64,000 nucleotides of DNA from Candidatus Zambryskiibacteriota bacterium (GCA_048499675.1 JASNZL010000005.1:7386-71385); one strand, 5' to 3'. Shown: positions 11,188 through 63,038, counted from the stretch's first letter. The notes: generated from the sequence alone by a model not told the origin. Numbers and translations are program-made.

Positions 11188-11682
11188 ATGGAAATAAAAT
11201 CTCAATTTGAATATGATGATAAAATTGCACATGTCACATACAGGGACACGAATTCTTTCGGTGATTTAAGATCTAAAAATGTCACTCAAGTTTACGCTGT
11301 TTGTTTTTGGAAAGATCAGATAGTCCTAGTACATAACAAAAACAGCGACTCTCTAAGTCTGCCGGGTGGAGGTTTGGAAAAAGACGAGACATTTGAAGAT
11401 TGTTTAAAAAGAGAGGTCAAAGAAGAAACTAACATGAAAGTCCTGTCCTTTGCACCGATCGGATATCAGAAAGTTACCGATAACGAATCTCTGGCAGTTT
11501 TTCAATTGAGATATGTCTGCACAGTTGAGCCGTATGGTGATTTTGTTTCCGATCCGGATGGAGATGTGGATCAGATAAAAACTATAAATCCGGAGGAATT
11601 TAAAGAGCACATAAAATGGGGCGAGGTTGGAGACAGAATTTTTGAAAGAGCTATAGAATTTAAAAATAAACTAACAAAATAG
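11188..11682 (+). CDS. Nudix hydrolase (paralog A).
   Basis: Nudix box LPGGGLEKDETFEDCLKREVKEETNM, and a C-terminal EPYGDFVSDPDGDV...GDRI block shared with the other paralogs. Confidence 0.75.
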   Translation: MEIKSQFEYDDKIAHVTYRDTNSFGDLRSKNVTQVYAVCFWKDQIVLVHNKNSDSLSLPGGGLEKDETFEDCLKREVKEETNMKVLSFAPIGYQKVTDNESLAVFQLRYVCTVEPYGDFVSDPDGDVDQIKTINPEEFKEHIKWGEVGDRIFERAIEFKNKLTK

Positions 11683-11684
11683 CC

Positions 11685-12188
11685 ATGGAAATAAAATCAA
11701 CTTTAATAAACAGATCCGGACAGGAATTAGATATTATTTATCATGAAGACGCGAACCCAAACGAAAATTTGGAAGGAAAAATATTACAAGCAGTTCATGG
11801 GCTTTGTTTTTACAATAACAAACTCGTTATCGTCTATGCCGAAGGAAAAGGATATTGGACATTCCCGGGAGGAGGTATAGAACTGGGAGAAACATATGAG
11901 GAAGCAGTAATTCGTGAAGTTAAAGAGGAATCAAACATGAAAGTTCTGCATCAAGAACTCATTGGTTTTCAGGATATTTATGAAAATGGAAAAATAATTA
12001 GACAAACTCGCTCATTTTGTATAGTAGAACCATATGGAGATTTCATTTCTGATCCAGATGGAGATGTTACTGAAATAAAACTTATTGATCCTAAGGATCT
12101 TAAACAATACATTGATTGGAAAAAAATTGGCGATAGAATTTTGGAGAGAGCTTTGGAGATGTTAAAAGAATATAACAAAAATTTATGA
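11685..12188 (+). CDS. Nudix hydrolase (paralog B).
   Basis: Nudix box FPGGGIELGETYEEAVIREVKEESNM; 3-nt gap from paralog A. Confidence 0.75.
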   Translation: MEIKSTLINRSGQELDIIYHEDANPNENLEGKILQAVHGLCFYNNKLVIVYAEGKGYWTFPGGGIELGETYEEAVIREVKEESNMKVLHQELIGFQDIYENGKIIRQTRSFCIVEPYGDFISDPDGDVTEIKLIDPKDLKQYIDWKKIGDRILERALEMLKEYNKNL

Positions 12189-33618: not shown

Positions 33619-34128
33619 TTGATTATGGAAATAAAATCTAAAATGGTAAATAGGTTGGGTCAGGATTTGGACCTTATATATTATGAAGGACTTAATCCAA
33701 ATGAGAATTTAGAAGGTAAAATATTGCAAGCGGTTCATGGTTTTTGTTTTTATGGAGATAAGATTGTCATTGTTTTCGCTGAAGAAAAAGGATACTGGAC
33801 TTTTCCGGGCGGAGGAATAGAAATTGGAGAAACTTATGAGGAAGCAACAGTTCGTGAAGTTAGAGAAGAATCTAATATGAAAGTATCACATCAAGAACTA
33901 ATTGGATTTCAAGATATTTTTGAACCTGATAGGGTAGTCAGGCAAACTCGCTCTTTTTGTTTGGTTGAACCGTATGGAGAATTTGCAGGTGATCCTGATG
34001 GTGATATTACTGAAATAAAACTAATTGATCCGAAAGATATCAAAAAATATATTGATTGGAAAGAAATAGGAGATAGAATTATGAAAAGAGCGCTCCAAAT
34101 GAAAGAGGAGTATTACAGTAAGATTTAA
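33619..34128 (+). CDS. Nudix hydrolase (paralog B', about 70% identical to 11685-12188).
   Basis: FPGGGIEIGETYEEATVREVREESNM and EPYGEFAGDPDGDITEIKLIDPKD. Confidence 0.75.
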   Translation: MIMEIKSKMVNRLGQDLDLIYYEGLNPNENLEGKILQAVHGFCFYGDKIVIVFAEEKGYWTFPGGGIEIGETYEEATVREVREESNMKVSHQELIGFQDIFEPDRVVRQTRSFCLVEPYGEFAGDPDGDITEIKLIDPKDIKKYIDWKEIGDRIMKRALQMKEEYYSKI

Positions 34129-57663: not shown

Positions 57664-58107
57664 ATGACAATAATTTACGAAACTGAAAACTTTGTAATCG
57701 AATCACATGAAAAGCCAGAAGTAGATAGGCTCGAAGGTGGTCATATTAAGATAAGTCCCAAAGTTGATGTTGAGGATAGAACCAAACTATCTCCACGACA
57801 AGCGATCGAACTTATGAGACTTACCATGGTTGCCGGAGAAGCTCTAGTTAAAATGATGGCTTCAATTGGAGTAGAGATTGGAAGAATCAATTATCAGGAT
57901 AATGGTAATTGGAAACCATCTCTACATGTCCATCTTTACGGAAGAGCCAAAAGTGCAGTAATGCAAAAATTTGGCGATCCAATTATCCCTGGCCACAAAG
58001 AAGAATACGAACCCTTAACTGATTCCGATATTCAGATCTTAAAGGCAGAAGTTGAGGCTAAATCTAGTGAAGAAAAGTATTCAGATGCGGCTTGGGGGTT
58101 GAAATAG
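57664..58107 (+). CDS. HIT-family-like protein.
   Basis: GGHIKISPK and SLHVHLYGR (His-phi-His-phi). Confidence 0.4.
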   Translation: MTIIYETENFVIESHEKPEVDRLEGGHIKISPKVDVEDRTKLSPRQAIELMRLTMVAGEALVKMMASIGVEIGRINYQDNGNWKPSLHVHLYGRAKSAVMQKFGDPIIPGHKEEYEPLTDSDIQILKAEVEAKSSEEKYSDAAWGLK

Positions 58108-59933: not shown

Positions 59934-62900
59934 TTGTATATGGAAGAAAAAGAAAAAAATAATAATTACGAACATAAAAACATTGAATCTAAGTGGCCCC
60001 ACTCCGCTGAAGCTTTGCGGGGCAAGCAGAATTATAGTCATAAAGAGATTGAGCTAAAGTGGCAAAATATTTGGAAGGAAAATAAACTTTTCGAAACCCC
60101 TAACGAAGTTCCTGGAAAAAAGAATTTTTATACGTTAGTAGAATTTCCATATCCATCTGGTAATTTACATATTGGACATTGGTATGCGTTTGCGGTGCCG
60201 GATATTTTTGCACGAGCAAAAAGAATGCAAGATTATAATGTTTTGTTTCCAATCGGTTTTGACTCTTTTGGATTGCCAGCAGAAAACGCGGCGATAAAAA
60301 GAGGACTTGATCCAAAAAAATGGACCTACGAAAATATTGAATATATGGAGAAGCAACTTGCTTCAATGGGTAACAGCTTTGATTGGTCTCGTAAAGTGAT
60401 AACTTCTGATCCAGAATACTACAAATGGACTCAATGGCTTTTTTTGGAGCTCTTTAAAAAAGGTTTGGCCTACAAGAAAAAGGCGCTTGTAAATTGGTGT
60501 CCGTCTTGTCAGACGGTGCTTGCAAATGAGCAAGTGGTAAATGGTAAATGTGAAAGATGTGATAGTGAGGTGGTGCAAAAAGATTTGGAGCAGTGGTTTT
60601 TCAAAATAACTGATTATGCCGAGAGACTTCTTGCTGATATGGATAATTTGGATTGGCCAGAACCTATAAAGGAAGCGCAGAGGAATTGGATAGGTAAGAG
60701 TGTTGGAACAGTAATAGATTTTAAGATCCAACACTCTTCGCAGAAAGACGCAGAAGAAACGCAGAATAACCCAGAAAATATTCAGCAAAGTTCTGCGTCT
60801 ATTCAGCGTAGTTTTGCGACTTCGGTAGAAGTATTTACAACAAGGGCGGATACTTTGTTTGGAGCAACGTATATTGTTCTCGCGCCAGAATACAAAGAAA
60901 TTGAAAATTTAAAATTGAAAATTGAAAATTGGGACGAAGTCCAAGATTACATAAACGGAGCAAAGAGGAAAACGGAAATAGAGAGGACGGATGTAAAAAA
61001 AGAGAAAACGGGTGTAGAAATAGAAGGAATAAAAGCAGTAAATCCAGCAACAGGAGAAGAAATACCAGTCTGGGTTGCTGATTATGTTTTGGGAAATTAT
61101 GGAACCGGAGCAGTGATGGCTGTGCCAGCTCATGACGAACGCGACTTTGAGTTTGCCAAGAAATATAATTTGCCAATTAGACAAGTCATAGAACCAAAAT
61201 TTGTAGGATTGACTGGGGATGGGGCCGTTAAACCAGATATGGATTTTGTAAAGAGAGAAGCTGTGTGTGCTGTTGTGAGAAATCCAAAAGATGATAGTTA
61301 TCTTTGTGTCAGTTGGAAAAATTTTGTAATGAATGGGCTTGTTACTGGCGGGATAGAAGATGGGGAAGATCCTGTAGATTGCGCAAGAAGAGAAATTAGA
61401 GAAGAGACAGGTTACAAAAATTTGAAATTTGTAAGAAAATCAAATATTGCGATAAATACTTTTTTCTATCACCGTGTAAAAGAACAAAATCGCCACGCTC
61501 ATTTTCAATTTGTCTTTTTTGATTTGGAAAACGAAGAGAAAGATGTGGTGGATGAAAAAGAAAGCGCTTTGCATGAGATCGTGTGGAAAAAGAAAGATGA
61601 GCTAAAAGATTTTTTCACTGTTTTTGAGGGTGATTTTATAGTAAATATTTTGGATGATGATAAATTTGTATATACAGACGAAGGAATCGTGTCTAACTCA
61701 AAAGAATTTAATGGAATGGAAAGTGAGTCTGCGAGGGAGAAGATAGCAGAAAAATTTGGTCAAAAGGAGATTAAATATAAATTAAGAGATTGGCTCTTGA
61801 GTAGGCAGAGATATTGGGGTTGTCCAATACCAGTTGTTTACGATCCGGAAGGCAACCCTCATCCAGTCAAAGAAGAACACTTACCTTGGCTTTTGCCAGA
61901 GGACAATATTGATTTTACTCCAAAGGGCACATCACCCCTTGCGTCATCAAAAGAATTAAAAGAGAGGGTAGAAAAATTATATGGTAAGGGGTGGACTCCA
62001 GAATTTGACACTATGGATACTTTTGTCGATTCCTCATGGTACTTCATCGCGTATTGTATACGCGAAAATCTCAAATCCCAAATTCCAATTTCCAAACAAT
62101 TTCAAAATTCAGAAATTCAAAATAAGCTTAAATCATGGATGCCGATTTCGAGGTATTCCGGTGGGGCAGAACACACCACTATGCATCTTTTGTATTCCAG
62201 ATTTTTTCATAAAGCACTATTTGATTTGGGTTTGGTAAATGAGTCAGAGCCATTTAAAGTGAGAATGAATAGAGGACTTATACTTGGACCAGATGGTCAA
62301 AAGATGAGTAAGTCAAAAGGTAATGTGATTGATCCGGGTGAGTGGATAGAAAAAGTAGGAGCCGATACGGTGAGGATGTATCTTGCTTTTATTGGTCCAT
62401 ACAATGGAGCGGGACAGTATCCATGGGATTTGGGAGGAATTGCAGGGATGAGGAGATTTTTGGAGAGAGTATGGAAGATTCAGTTACTAATCGCTAAGCG
62501 CGAGACACTAACAGAAGAGAAAGATACAAAAAAGCTAGCGACTAGCGACTCGCGTCTAGAAACTTTACTCCACAAAACTATAAAAAAGGTGACGGAGGAT
62601 ATAGAGAGTTATAAATTTAATACAGCTATTTCTAGTATGATGATTTTGTTAAATGAACTGGACACTAATTCACGAGTGAATGCAAATGACACGAATAAAA
62701 TACCAAAAGGAATTTTTGAAATATTTTTGAAGTTGCTCGCTCCTTTTGCTCCACACATAACAGAAGAAATTTGGTCCAATTTTGGCCATACTACATCGAT
62801 ACATTTGGAAGATTGGCCAAAATATGATGAAAGTAAAATAAAGTCAGAAAGTGTTAATATTGCTATTTCTATAAACGGCAAAGTAAGACTTGTAAAGGAG

Positions 62901-63038
62901 TTTAAAGAGGGGATAGAAGAAGAAGAATTAAAAAAGCTGGTTTTGGAGATGGAAGAGGTCAAGAAATGGATTTCTCAAAAAGAAATTAAGAAGATTATTT
63001 ACGTAAAAAACAAGCTAATAAACTTTGTTTTGGGTTAG
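59934..63038 (+). CDS. leuS: Leucyl-tRNA synthetase with an inserted Nudix-like domain and a shortened CP1 editing region.
   Basis: PYPSGNLHIGHWY (HIGH), KMSKSKGN, YGTGAVMAVPAHDERDFEFAKKY. The inserted block GGIEDGEDPVDCARREIREETGY fits the Nudix box GX5EX7REUXEEXGU. Total length 1034 aa. Confidence 0.8.
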   Translation: MYMEEKEKNNNYEHKNIESKWPHSAEALRGKQNYSHKEIELKWQNIWKENKLFETPNEVPGKKNFYTLVEFPYPSGNLHIGHWYAFAVPDIFARAKRMQDYNVLFPIGFDSFGLPAENAAIKRGLDPKKWTYENIEYMEKQLASMGNSFDWSRKVITSDPEYYKWTQWLFLELFKKGLAYKKKALVNWCPSCQTVLANEQVVNGKCERCDSEVVQKDLEQWFFKITDYAERLLADMDNLDWPEPIKEAQRNWIGKSVGTVIDFKIQHSSQKDAEETQNNPENIQQSSASIQRSFATSVEVFTTRADTLFGATYIVLAPEYKEIENLKLKIENWDEVQDYINGAKRKTEIERTDVKKEKTGVEIEGIKAVNPATGEEIPVWVADYVLGNYGTGAVMAVPAHDERDFEFAKKYNLPIRQVIEPKFVGLTGDGAVKPDMDFVKREAVCAVVRNPKDDSYLCVSWKNFVMNGLVTGGIEDGEDPVDCARREIREETGYKNLKFVRKSNIAINTFFYHRVKEQNRHAHFQFVFFDLENEEKDVVDEKESALHEIVWKKKDELKDFFTVFEGDFIVNILDDDKFVYTDEGIVSNSKEFNGMESESAREKIAEKFGQKEIKYKLRDWLLSRQRYWGCPIPVVYDPEGNPHPVKEEHLPWLLPEDNIDFTPKGTSPLASSKELKERVEKLYGKGWTPEFDTMDTFVDSSWYFIAYCIRENLKSQIPISKQFQNSEIQNKLKSWMPISRYSGGAEHTTMHLLYSRFFHKALFDLGLVNESEPFKVRMNRGLILGPDGQKMSKSKGNVIDPGEWIEKVGADTVRMYLAFIGPYNGAGQYPWDLGGIAGMRRFLERVWKIQLLIAKRETLTEEKDTKKLATSDSRLETLLHKTIKKVTEDIESYKFNTAISSMMILLNELDTNSRVNANDTNKIPKGIFEIFLKLLAPFAPHITEEIWSNFGHTTSIHLEDWPKYDESKIKSESVNIAISINGKVRLVKEFKEGIEEEELKKLVLEMEEVKKWISQKEIKKIIYVKNKLINFVLG

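Follow-up and report, generated by a model that had tools for sequence, protein, structure and literature searches.

A predicted Nudix hydrolase domain nested in the editing domain of leucyl-tRNA synthetase in Patescibacteria

Aminoacyl-tRNA synthetases are among the most conserved enzymes, and extra catalytic domains in them have been seen mainly as a eukaryotic theme, usually in a terminal position. The closest described parallels to the gene reported here are the NCBIfam family NF040702 ('isoleucine--tRNA ligase, N-acetyltransferase domain-containing'), in which a synthetase and a second catalytic domain share one polypeptide, and the bifunctional NadM-Nudix fusion (NADM_SYNY3, in PMC5389931), in which an adenylyl-transfer enzyme is joined to a second catalytic domain. 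We analyzed leuS, the gene of a leucyl-tRNA synthetase (LeuRS), in a stretch of 64,000 nucleotides from Candidatus Zambryskiibacteriota bacterium (GCA_048499675.1, JASNZL010000005.1:7386-71385); this whole stretch is called the window throughout. In contrast to both parallels, the second enzyme predicted here, a Nudix hydrolase module, is nested in the editing domain (CP1) and not appended, and within a single host family it recurs in multiple copies and at more than one site. A search of open-access papers and bioRxiv yielded no description of a LeuRS-Nudix architecture or of domain accretion in LeuRS from the candidate phyla radiation (CPR). Host and insert families are both known; what is unusual is that the added putative catalytic domain is nested in CP1 and that its recruitment appears recurrent and specific to one host.

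The host itself is best compared with canonical bacterial LeuRS (E. coli 4aq7/5omw, T. thermophilus 1h3n/2bte). The window LeuRS shares their domain order and fold at 33-36% identity, and also their HIGH and KMSKS signatures, CP1 T-rich motif, editing aspartates and anticodon-binding domain. It differs from them in having gained a Nudix domain of ~150 residues and a 31-residue insert at the edge of CP1, and in lacking the leucine-specific domain. This domain precedes KMSKS in most, not all, bacterial LeuRS. In the minimal LeuRS of Mycoplasma mobile (3ziu) it is replaced by GKDG, and this replacement supports charging and editing once moved into E. coli LeuRS (PMC3643597). The window LeuRS carries a similar Gly-x-Asp-Gly, GPDG. 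Because the M. mobile enzyme offers this functional precedent, the missing domain does not exclude membership in bacterial LeuRS. However, M. mobile LeuRS has no CP1 at all, whereas the window LeuRS has a complete CP1 plus the added domain.

The leuS gene is a single uninterrupted open reading frame encoding 1034 residues counted from TTG. The gene, the insert and its immediate surroundings are as follows.

59934..63038 (+): leuS, bacterial-type leucyl-tRNA synthetase with nested Nudix domain (open reading frame, TIGR00396, full-length model)
61161..61196 (+): CP1 beta-hairpin, ascending strand KYNLPIRQVIEP, residues 410-421, leading into the insert (insert-free orthologs, predicted beta-strand)
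61197..61667 (+): site B, the nested Nudix hydrolase module, residues 422-578, in place of a hairpin tip of ~10 residues (Pfam, model, fold matches, alignments)
61347..61415 (+): Nudix box, GGIEDGEDPVDCARREIREETGY, residues 472-494 (all specified positions of GX5EX7REUXEEXGU)
61464..61493 (+): X-loop region with F511 and Y512 (+17/+18 from the box) and K516-x-x-N519-R520 (module conservation)
61668..61703 (+): descending hairpin strand, VYTDEGIVSNSK, residues 579-590, where CP1 resumes (aligns to T. thermophilus residue 376 onward)

Using T. thermophilus LeuRS 1h3n as reference for the residue-level alignment, we found that residues 365-375 of that enzyme (11 residues) are swapped for leuS 422-578 (157 residues). 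The hairpin of the window LeuRS reads KYNLPIRQ-VIEP[Nudix]FVYTD-EGIVSNSKEF, and site B measures 165 residues compared with 14 in insert-free orthologs; in one of these, P0054, the hairpin tip is SGGDISKEA. An initial annotation, made from the sequence alone, had reported about 200 extra residues between KYNLPIRQV (residues 410-418) and KYKLRDWLLSRQRYWG (residues 614-629). The extra block is real, but only ~146-150 of the ~195 residues between these flanking LeuRS segments are extra. The Pfam NUDIX profile (PF00293) matched residues 440-557 with E=6.4e-15 and 55.8 bits against a gathering score of 21.1. Inside this match lies the box, which fits the consensus at every specified position, as had been claimed. 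An AlphaFold2 model of residues 412-590, built from a 36-sequence alignment, reached a predicted local distance difference test (pLDDT) of 93.4 and a predicted template modelling score (pTM) of 0.88, with Nudix-type secondary structure; the Nudix fold proposed for this region was thus also obtained by structure prediction. In a model of full-length leuS the module was predicted with pLDDT 88-97. Foldseek comparison of the module model with the PDB gave 485 matches at E<=0.001. The 50 matches listed were all Nudix enzymes, and the best among them was 2azw with a template modelling (TM) score of 0.79 normalised to target. Pfam, AlphaFold2 and Foldseek agree that the in-frame Nudix insertion first noted from the sequence is genuine, and it lies inside CP1. 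As judged from these models, leuS carries a true in-frame insertion of a complete domain of the alpha/beta/alpha Nudix fold, with a canonical metal-binding catalytic box, within CP1, and the rest of the LeuRS is canonical.

Two other origins of the insert were considered and rejected. An intein is not compatible with the junctions (...VIEP|KFVG... and ...DDKF|VYTDEG...), which have no intein-type residues, or with the predicted fold, which is Nudix and not Hint. A mobile-DNA origin was ruled out, since direct or inverted repeats flanking the insert were limited to short AT-rich chance repeats, the GC content at third codon positions of the insert was only slightly lower (0.27 compared with 0.33), and no relatives were found on viral contigs.

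The remaining features of the LeuRS body are listed below.

60168..60179 (+): HIGH signature of the class I catalytic site, residues 79-82 (sequence)
60681..61772 (+): CP1 editing domain, residues ~250-613, broken by two insertions (PF13603, alignment to T. thermophilus)
60732..60824 (+): site A at the N-terminal edge of CP1, with a Q/S-rich low-complexity insert of 31 residues, 267-297 (without T. thermophilus counterpart)
60834..60854 (+): T-rich editing motif FTTRADT, residues 301-307 (sequence, alignment)
61119..61145 (+): AVPAHDERD, residues 396-404, with the editing-site aspartates D401 and D404 (sequence, alignment)
62286..62315 (+): GPDG replacing the leucine-specific domain, followed by KMSKS, residues 785-794 (alignment)
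62556..62921 (+): anticodon-binding (helical) domain, residues 875-996 (PF08264, E=1.5e-26)

The whole leuS protein matched the NCBIfam equivalog TIGR00396 (leuS_bact) with 927.3 bits against a cutoff of 548.4. Pfam detected the class I synthetase core, the editing domain PF13603 in two stretches, the anticodon-binding domain and NUDIX; the PF13603 match (E=2e-56) placed leuS residues 250-422 on profile positions 1-143 of 185, followed by the second stretch. The full-length model had a pLDDT of 86.6 and a pTM of 0.77 and was uncertain only at residues 1-31, ~270-297 and 862-870. Its LeuRS body was matched to the E. coli LeuRS-tRNA complexes 5omw/4aq7 with a TM score of 0.86 normalised to target. 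The alignment with T. thermophilus LeuRS resolved into four colinear blocks, in which leuS residues 33-266, 298-421, 579-785 and 790-1033 correspond to residues 3-237, 243-364, 376-579 and 637-876, respectively. T. thermophilus residues ~580-636, the leucine-specific domain, have no counterpart in leuS.

For the analysis of conservation, the window LeuRS was aligned with its 120 best-scoring LeuRS relatives (121 sequences in total). H79, G81 and H82 of HIGH were invariant in this alignment, and so were F301, T302, T303, R304 and T307 of the T-rich motif, which aligns to T. thermophilus T247/T248/T252, and D401, R403 and D404, with the aspartates aligning to D344/D347. Likewise invariant were G785, D787, G788, K790, M791, S792 and K793 around KMSKS (residues 790-794), and the leucine-specific domain was missing from the window LeuRS and from all 120 relatives. 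HIGH, KMSKS, AVPAHDERD and KYNLPIRQV are all present where the initial annotation had seen them. Its second claim about the host, a shortened editing region, did not hold: the segment from TTRADT to GIKAVNP lies within residues 298-421, and these 124 residues match 122 residues of T. thermophilus (243-364) with few gaps. The isolated chain 2ajg_A, E. coli CP1, gives the same picture, with its residues 22-143 aligned to leuS residues 294-419. If anything, CP1 is enlarged by the insert at site A, which is predicted to be disordered (pLDDT about 50-54). Site A varies from 11 to 368 residues among the LeuRS relatives; it has 57 residues in the close relatives P0017 and P0018, and in others it holds whole domains of 136-368 residues. 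Judged by these alignments, the synthetic site (HIGH, KMSKS) and the CP1 editing site of leuS are intact.

Conservation within the module was assessed in 90 LeuRS-embedded modules, whose host LeuRS are down to ~50% identical. In the Nudix box, G472, E487 and E491 were kept in all 90 modules, G493 in 88, E490 in 84, R486 in 80 and E478 in 78. Outside the box, K516 and N519 were found in 90/90 and R520 in 86/90; together with R441, W461, H547 and W551, these are conserved residues specific to the family. On the descending hairpin strand, G584 and S589 were present in all 90 hosts. When 248 module instances were compared, the K..NR motif occurred in 218, and the catalytic Glu triad was intact in 169/179 copies at site B, 21/22 at site A and 23/28 free-standing copies. 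It was also intact in every copy of proteins with more than one module. The near-invariant box and the intact triad indicate that, at the level of sequence, the catalytic glutamates are under strong purifying selection, and the nested Nudix domain is apparently active. The same box, fold prediction and Pfam score together with this conservation rule out a chance Nudix-like motif.

In the 121 LeuRS sequences, site B was 160-178 residues long in 90 and 4-35 residues long in the remaining 31. Most of the closest Patescibacteria LeuRS have the nested Nudix. Records with a name belonged to Patescibacteria of the Paceibacteria/Parcubacteria group (Kaiserbacteria, Taylorbacteria, Nomurabacteria, Paceibacterota), and Zambryskibacteria were among the insert-free records. 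The architecture had been called non-standard. It is indeed absent from canonical LeuRS, but with 90/121 of the closest relatives it is not a one-off. It is a lineage-wide architecture already present in the databases, and its function is inferred. The NCBI labels were mostly 'class I tRNA ligase family protein', 'hypothetical protein' or 'alpha/beta fold hydrolase'; mislabelled records include MBP6854862.1, QQR76666.1, MEK7116954.1, MAG12821.1 and MFA7309281.1 (in the clusters of P0125, P0045, P0091 and P0101). Both parts are named in the JGI label 'leucyl-tRNA synthetase/8-oxo-dGTP pyrophosphatase MutT (NUDIX family)', and a Kaiserbacteria entry in UniRef is labelled 'leucine--tRNA ligase'. 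Such vague names can make leuS appear absent from CPR genomes in automated surveys. Among the insert-free sequences, a subgroup (P0060, P0066, P0072, P0075, P0079, P0080, P0082, P0084, P0085, P0095 and P0096) lacks both the hairpin tip and the whole C-terminal part of CP1 (...SEEAREKI; residues ~418-605 of the window LeuRS) and reads ...PIKE-ITPDW-SLLEKFGKKV.

A search of 1.84 billion representative proteins with the module profile gave 198 matching proteins at a threshold of E<=1e-30; with E<=1e-10 the number rose to 556. In the best 150 representatives the module either had no host (free-standing proteins of ~155-200 residues) or lay in LeuRS or LeuRS fragments, apart from a few fragments without identified host. 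No other host, such as IleRS or ValRS, was identified among these 150. Within LeuRS the module was found at four sites: just before the T-rich motif (site A, in the Tara fragment P0011 and in P0136-P0145), at the position seen in the window (site B), between GESPLA and the SSWY motif (site C, in P0146 and P0226) and just after RDW..SRQRYWG (P0170). Fourteen proteins contained two copies and two proteins contained three, and copies within one protein were of different subtypes and not recent duplicates. In addition, P0142 (379 residues), P0224, P0250 and P0257 belong to the module family without detectable LeuRS sequence, P0142 being a tandem double Nudix.

Trees were calculated by neighbour joining on identity-based distances, so that numbers of insertions, losses and swaps are approximate. 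In the module tree, forms from site A, from site B and free-standing forms were intermixed; for example, a site-A module of P0136 and a site-B module of P0091 were 67% identical. Divergence of core and module was hardly correlated (Spearman 0.11), with evolution about 2.8 times faster in the module. P0058 and P0125 are 94% identical over their N-terminal 236 residues compared with ~30% in the module. A single ancient insertion followed by vertical descent is not supported by the correlation of 0.11 and the intermixed tree. On these comparisons, it is a robust conclusion that the module family has repeatedly been recruited, lost and replaced like a cassette in LeuRS of the Paceibacteria type, at four sites and in one to three copies. 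In terms of synthetase evolution, an essential synthetase of a bacterial lineage has here taken an intact second enzyme into its proofreading domain more than once, and close relatives exchange this module.

Free-standing members of the same family (P0005, P0008, P0013 and others, ~160 residues) resemble the window module in their fold, Nudix box, N-terminal lead-in and K..NR motif and are 37-44% identical to it; they differ in that the window module is nested inside another enzyme. The free-standing P0008 is not adjacent to leuS. The window itself contains three stand-alone Nudix genes, the first two in tandem:

11188-11682: stand-alone NUDIX gene (Pfam NUDIX)
11685-12188: stand-alone NUDIX gene (Pfam NUDIX)
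33619-34128: stand-alone NUDIX gene (Pfam NUDIX)

The initial annotation had taken these as paralogs. All three exist, and their Pfam NUDIX domains are of similar size to the insert, but they belong to a different Nudix family, which rules them out as its source. They are 41-76% identical to each other and 32-46% identical to the insert, the latter only around the box. Their box is atypical and ends EE(T/S)N-M, with Asn for the box Gly, compared with EETGY in the insert, and the module profile scored them with 25-30 bits compared with 235 for the insert.

The Nudix module is not the only domain nested in LeuRS of this group. In relatives (including P0370, P0395, P0341, P0348, P0298, P0022, P0053 and P0062) we found DUF559/MTES endonuclease-like, alpha/beta-hydrolase (Ser_hydrolase), ASCH, Ham1/ITPase and HAD domains at sites A and C and a nucleotidyltransferase-like domain at site B. 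The LeuRS of P0370, with 1722 residues, carries five nested enzyme domains: one alpha/beta-hydrolase, one HAD domain and three copies of the Nudix module. Some relatives with the Nudix module also have a HAD_2 phosphatase-like domain of ~200 residues at a third LeuRS site, which corresponds to residues ~671-690 of the window LeuRS; it lies at ~7185-7861 in L001, residues 650-804 in P0379 and residues 1186-1339 in P0370. The DUF559/MTES_1575 endonuclease-like domain also occurs in Nudix-free LeuRS of Zambryskibacteria.

With a single-sequence search the solved proteins nearest to the module were diphosphoinositol/ApnA hydrolases and the Lupinus Ap4A (diadenosine tetraphosphate) hydrolase (E 8e-5 to 5e-4). 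With the family profile they were the decapping effector AvrM14 (5e-8), the Lupinus Ap4A hydrolase (1e-7), 2azw, NudB and NudC, all with comparable scores. The solved enzymes 2azw, 1f3y (Lupinus Ap4A hydrolase) and 8dp8 (AvrM14) have fold and box in common with the module, with TM scores up to 0.79. The module may act on adenylated or dinucleoside-polyphosphate by-products, as had been proposed; its nearest solved relatives, an Ap4A hydrolase and decapping-type Nudix enzymes, lend this weak support. With an identity to characterised Nudix enzymes of only 12-24%, no substrate can be transferred.

The reading that we favour, tentatively and as slightly less than an even chance, is that the module is an active small-molecule Nudix enzyme, that its linkage to LeuRS has been selected and that it is not an editing device. 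It would be an autonomous Mg2+/Mn2+-dependent pyrophosphohydrolase that is physically attached to LeuRS and produced in equal amount, cleaves a small nucleoside-diphosphate-X compound and has no part in amino-acid proofreading. Synthetases make Ap4A-type compounds from their aminoacyl-adenylates, and for this reason dinucleoside or nucleoside polyphosphates (Ap4A/Ap3A-type), as side products of adenylate-forming synthetases, would be the favoured substrate class; this is our best guess, though by itself an unlikely one. It leans on the sequence matches to the diphosphoinositol/ApnA hydrolases, the Lupinus Ap4A hydrolase and AvrM14 and on a conserved aromatic pair, F511/Y512, in the X-loop. LeuRS would thereby carry its own clean-up enzyme. 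The repeated and LeuRS-specific recruitment suggests that the linkage is selected, though not for any set arrangement of the module with respect to the active sites of LeuRS.

Several observations weigh against this reading. The fold matches, of 12-24% identity, are divided evenly among ADP-ribose pyrophosphatases, RppH, NudI, MutT1 and Ap4A hydrolases, and the sequence matches to solved Nudix enzymes are weak (1e-5 to 1e-8). LeuRS is not known for outstanding Ap4A production. The module is absent from 31 of the 121 close LeuRS, with presence and absence interleaved on the core tree (~14 changes), and LeuRS thus works without it. Occurrence at four sites, together with the unrelated hydrolases (Ham1, HAD, alpha/beta-hydrolase), argues against a precisely positioned mechanism; a looser scaffold relationship fits the four sites equally well. 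The X moiety is contacted by the X-loop, ~17 residues past the box, where a Tyr at about +16-18 marks ApnA hydrolases according to Dunn et al. 1999, as summarised in PMC5389931. In the 90 embedded modules, position 511 was F in 75 and Y in 10, and position 512 was Y in 53 and F in 33. An aromatic residue is present, but it is more often Phe at 511 and not consistently Tyr, and the marker is not specific.

A broader claim, that one Nudix family is functionally wedded to LeuRS in Patescibacteria of the Paceibacteria type and that the linkage is adaptive through metabolic coupling or through genome economy by use of a scaffold, seems doubtful to us. If it were adaptive, it could reflect an unrecognised coupling of leucyl-adenylate chemistry with a nucleotide-diphosphate metabolite (an Ap4A-type alarmone or a lineage-specific compound). 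A functional linkage would provide a testable tie between adenylate-forming chemistry and the turnover of nucleotide by-products or alarmones in organisms with minimal metabolism. It could also reflect the use of an essential synthetase as a modular scaffold for metabolite-repair enzymes, a genome economy in ultra-small cells that would also imply a mechanism for moving whole domains in frame.

The strongest competitor to a selected linkage is a real possibility, if not a probable one. Here the module would be a general house-cleaning enzyme of the MutT/ITPase kind, serving nucleotide-pool sanitation without link to leucylation and sitting as a passenger at permissive sites, with surface loops of LeuRS that would accept whole domains in these reduced genomes; its restriction to LeuRS would result from spread by recombination between leuS alleles and not from selection. 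Unrelated domains are nested at the same sites, with five nested enzyme domains in P0370, and several of the families involved (Nudix, Ham1, HAD) are well known for house-cleaning hydrolases. The patchy distribution, the swapping of modules between near-identical cores (P0058/P0125), the 2.8-fold faster evolution of the insert, the absence of a fixed position on LeuRS and the location of the free-standing P0008 away from leuS all agree with this. However, a neutral module is not expected at four sites independently, or as three divergent copies in one host. Nor is it expected to avoid IleRS and ValRS, as it does in the best 150 representatives, or to keep its catalytic residues in nearly all copies. 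If only structural tolerance is involved, the CP1 hairpins would be natural, evolution-validated sites for domain insertion, and LeuRS a striking case of domain accretion in reduced genomes.

It is improbable that the module acts on RNA 5' ends (triphosphate, NAD or Np4N cap), perhaps on LeuRS-bound tRNA-Leu or its precursors. The top profile match among solved structures is indeed the mRNA-decapping effector AvrM14, NudC also matches, RppH structures give good fold matches (TM 0.65-0.68 normalised to target) and weak NCBIfam matches (6e-5), and the host LeuRS binds RNA; but none of these matches is strong or exceeds those to small-molecule Nudix enzymes. With four sites there is also no constant position relative to the bound tRNA, and free-standing members of the family occur without an RNA-binding partner. 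The 5' monophosphate of mature tRNA is no Nudix substrate.

Still less probable is target-linked immunity, in which the nested hydrolases (Nudix, alpha/beta-hydrolase, HAD) would detoxify, at the target enzyme, nucleotide-mimic inhibitors of LeuRS (aminoacyl-adenylate analogues of the agrocin-84/TM84 or microcin-C type) and an arms race would drive the swapping. LeuRS is targeted by adenylate-mimic toxins, as illustrated by the LeuRS-TM84 complex 3zgz, and the cassette-like replacement, the fast divergence of the module, the recruitment of several hydrolase classes to LeuRS and a HIT-family gene two genes upstream of leuS could be read in this way. This case is entirely circumstantial. The catalytic and family-specific residues are conserved and not diversifying, and toxin or immunity genes were not seen at the leuS loci examined. 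Moreover, Nudix enzymes cleave pyrophosphate bonds, which acyl-phosphoramidate and sulfamoyl mimics do not have.

The initial annotation had also proposed that the Nudix module takes the place of, or adds to, editing that was lost or shortened; it might do so by hydrolysing misactivated aminoacyl-adenylates, for instance. The module does lie inside CP1, and E. coli LeuRS deprived of its leucine-specific domain shifts toward tRNA-independent pre-transfer editing (PMC3643597). Nevertheless, the proposal is scarcely credible, because CP1 is full-length, its core aligns over its full length to solved CP1 domains, and all known editing residues are invariant in the 121 LeuRS; there is accordingly no loss of editing for the module to make good. 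CP1 is the same in insert-free orthologs, and the module also occurs outside CP1, at site C and after RDW..SRQRYWG. In addition, aminoacyl-AMP is a mixed anhydride of a nucleoside monophosphate and not a nucleoside diphosphate-X.

Finally, an artefact, in which an assembly chimera or a frameshift joined leuS to a Nudix gene or the motif arose by chance, is of negligible probability, since the open reading frame is unbroken, LeuRS resumes in frame after the module and the fold is confidently predicted; more than 200 independent LeuRS (NCBI, JGI, ENA, Logan, Tara) have the same architecture with identical boundaries, and the only point in its favour is one relative, L001, with a frameshifted leuS that suggests an error-prone assembly (ERZ25039529 contig_26879).

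The window gene is the cell's housekeeping bacterial-type leuS and not a paralog, because insert-bearing and insert-free genes occupy the same locus. The gene order in the window is YchF-HIT-DUF5671-leuS-Sigma70_r4, and that of the insert-free P0054 is YchF-DUF5671-leuS-Sigma70_r4/HARE-HTH-DUF8128-YceG; in the insert-bearing P0023 and L001 the genes downstream of leuS are the same as at the P0054 locus. A paralog was rejected on the basis of this synteny with an insert-free ortholog and of the core tree, in which sequences with and without the insert are interleaved. The HIT-family (nucleotide hydrolase/transferase) gene of the window, at 57664-58107, lies between the YchF and DUF5671 genes, and the insert-free relative L029 has no HIT-family gene at the equivalent position.

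The start of the gene deserves a separate remark.

59934..60026 (+): N-terminal extension of leuS, residues 1-31, probably disordered or partly untranslated (low pLDDT, homolog lengths)

In the full-length model, pLDDT was below 50 at residues 1-12 and 16-31, and the extension is absent from most homologs, whose N-terminal segment measures 11-17 residues compared with 40 in the window LeuRS. The ATG at 59940 is likely to be the true start rather than the TTG at 59934, because the NCBI member of its 99%-identity cluster, P0281, has 1032 residues. Within the extension, NYEHKNIESKW is a degenerate duplicate of the true N-terminal motif NYSHKEIELKW, and its AT-rich DNA contains a GC-rich inverted repeat, GCCCCAC...GCGGGGC.

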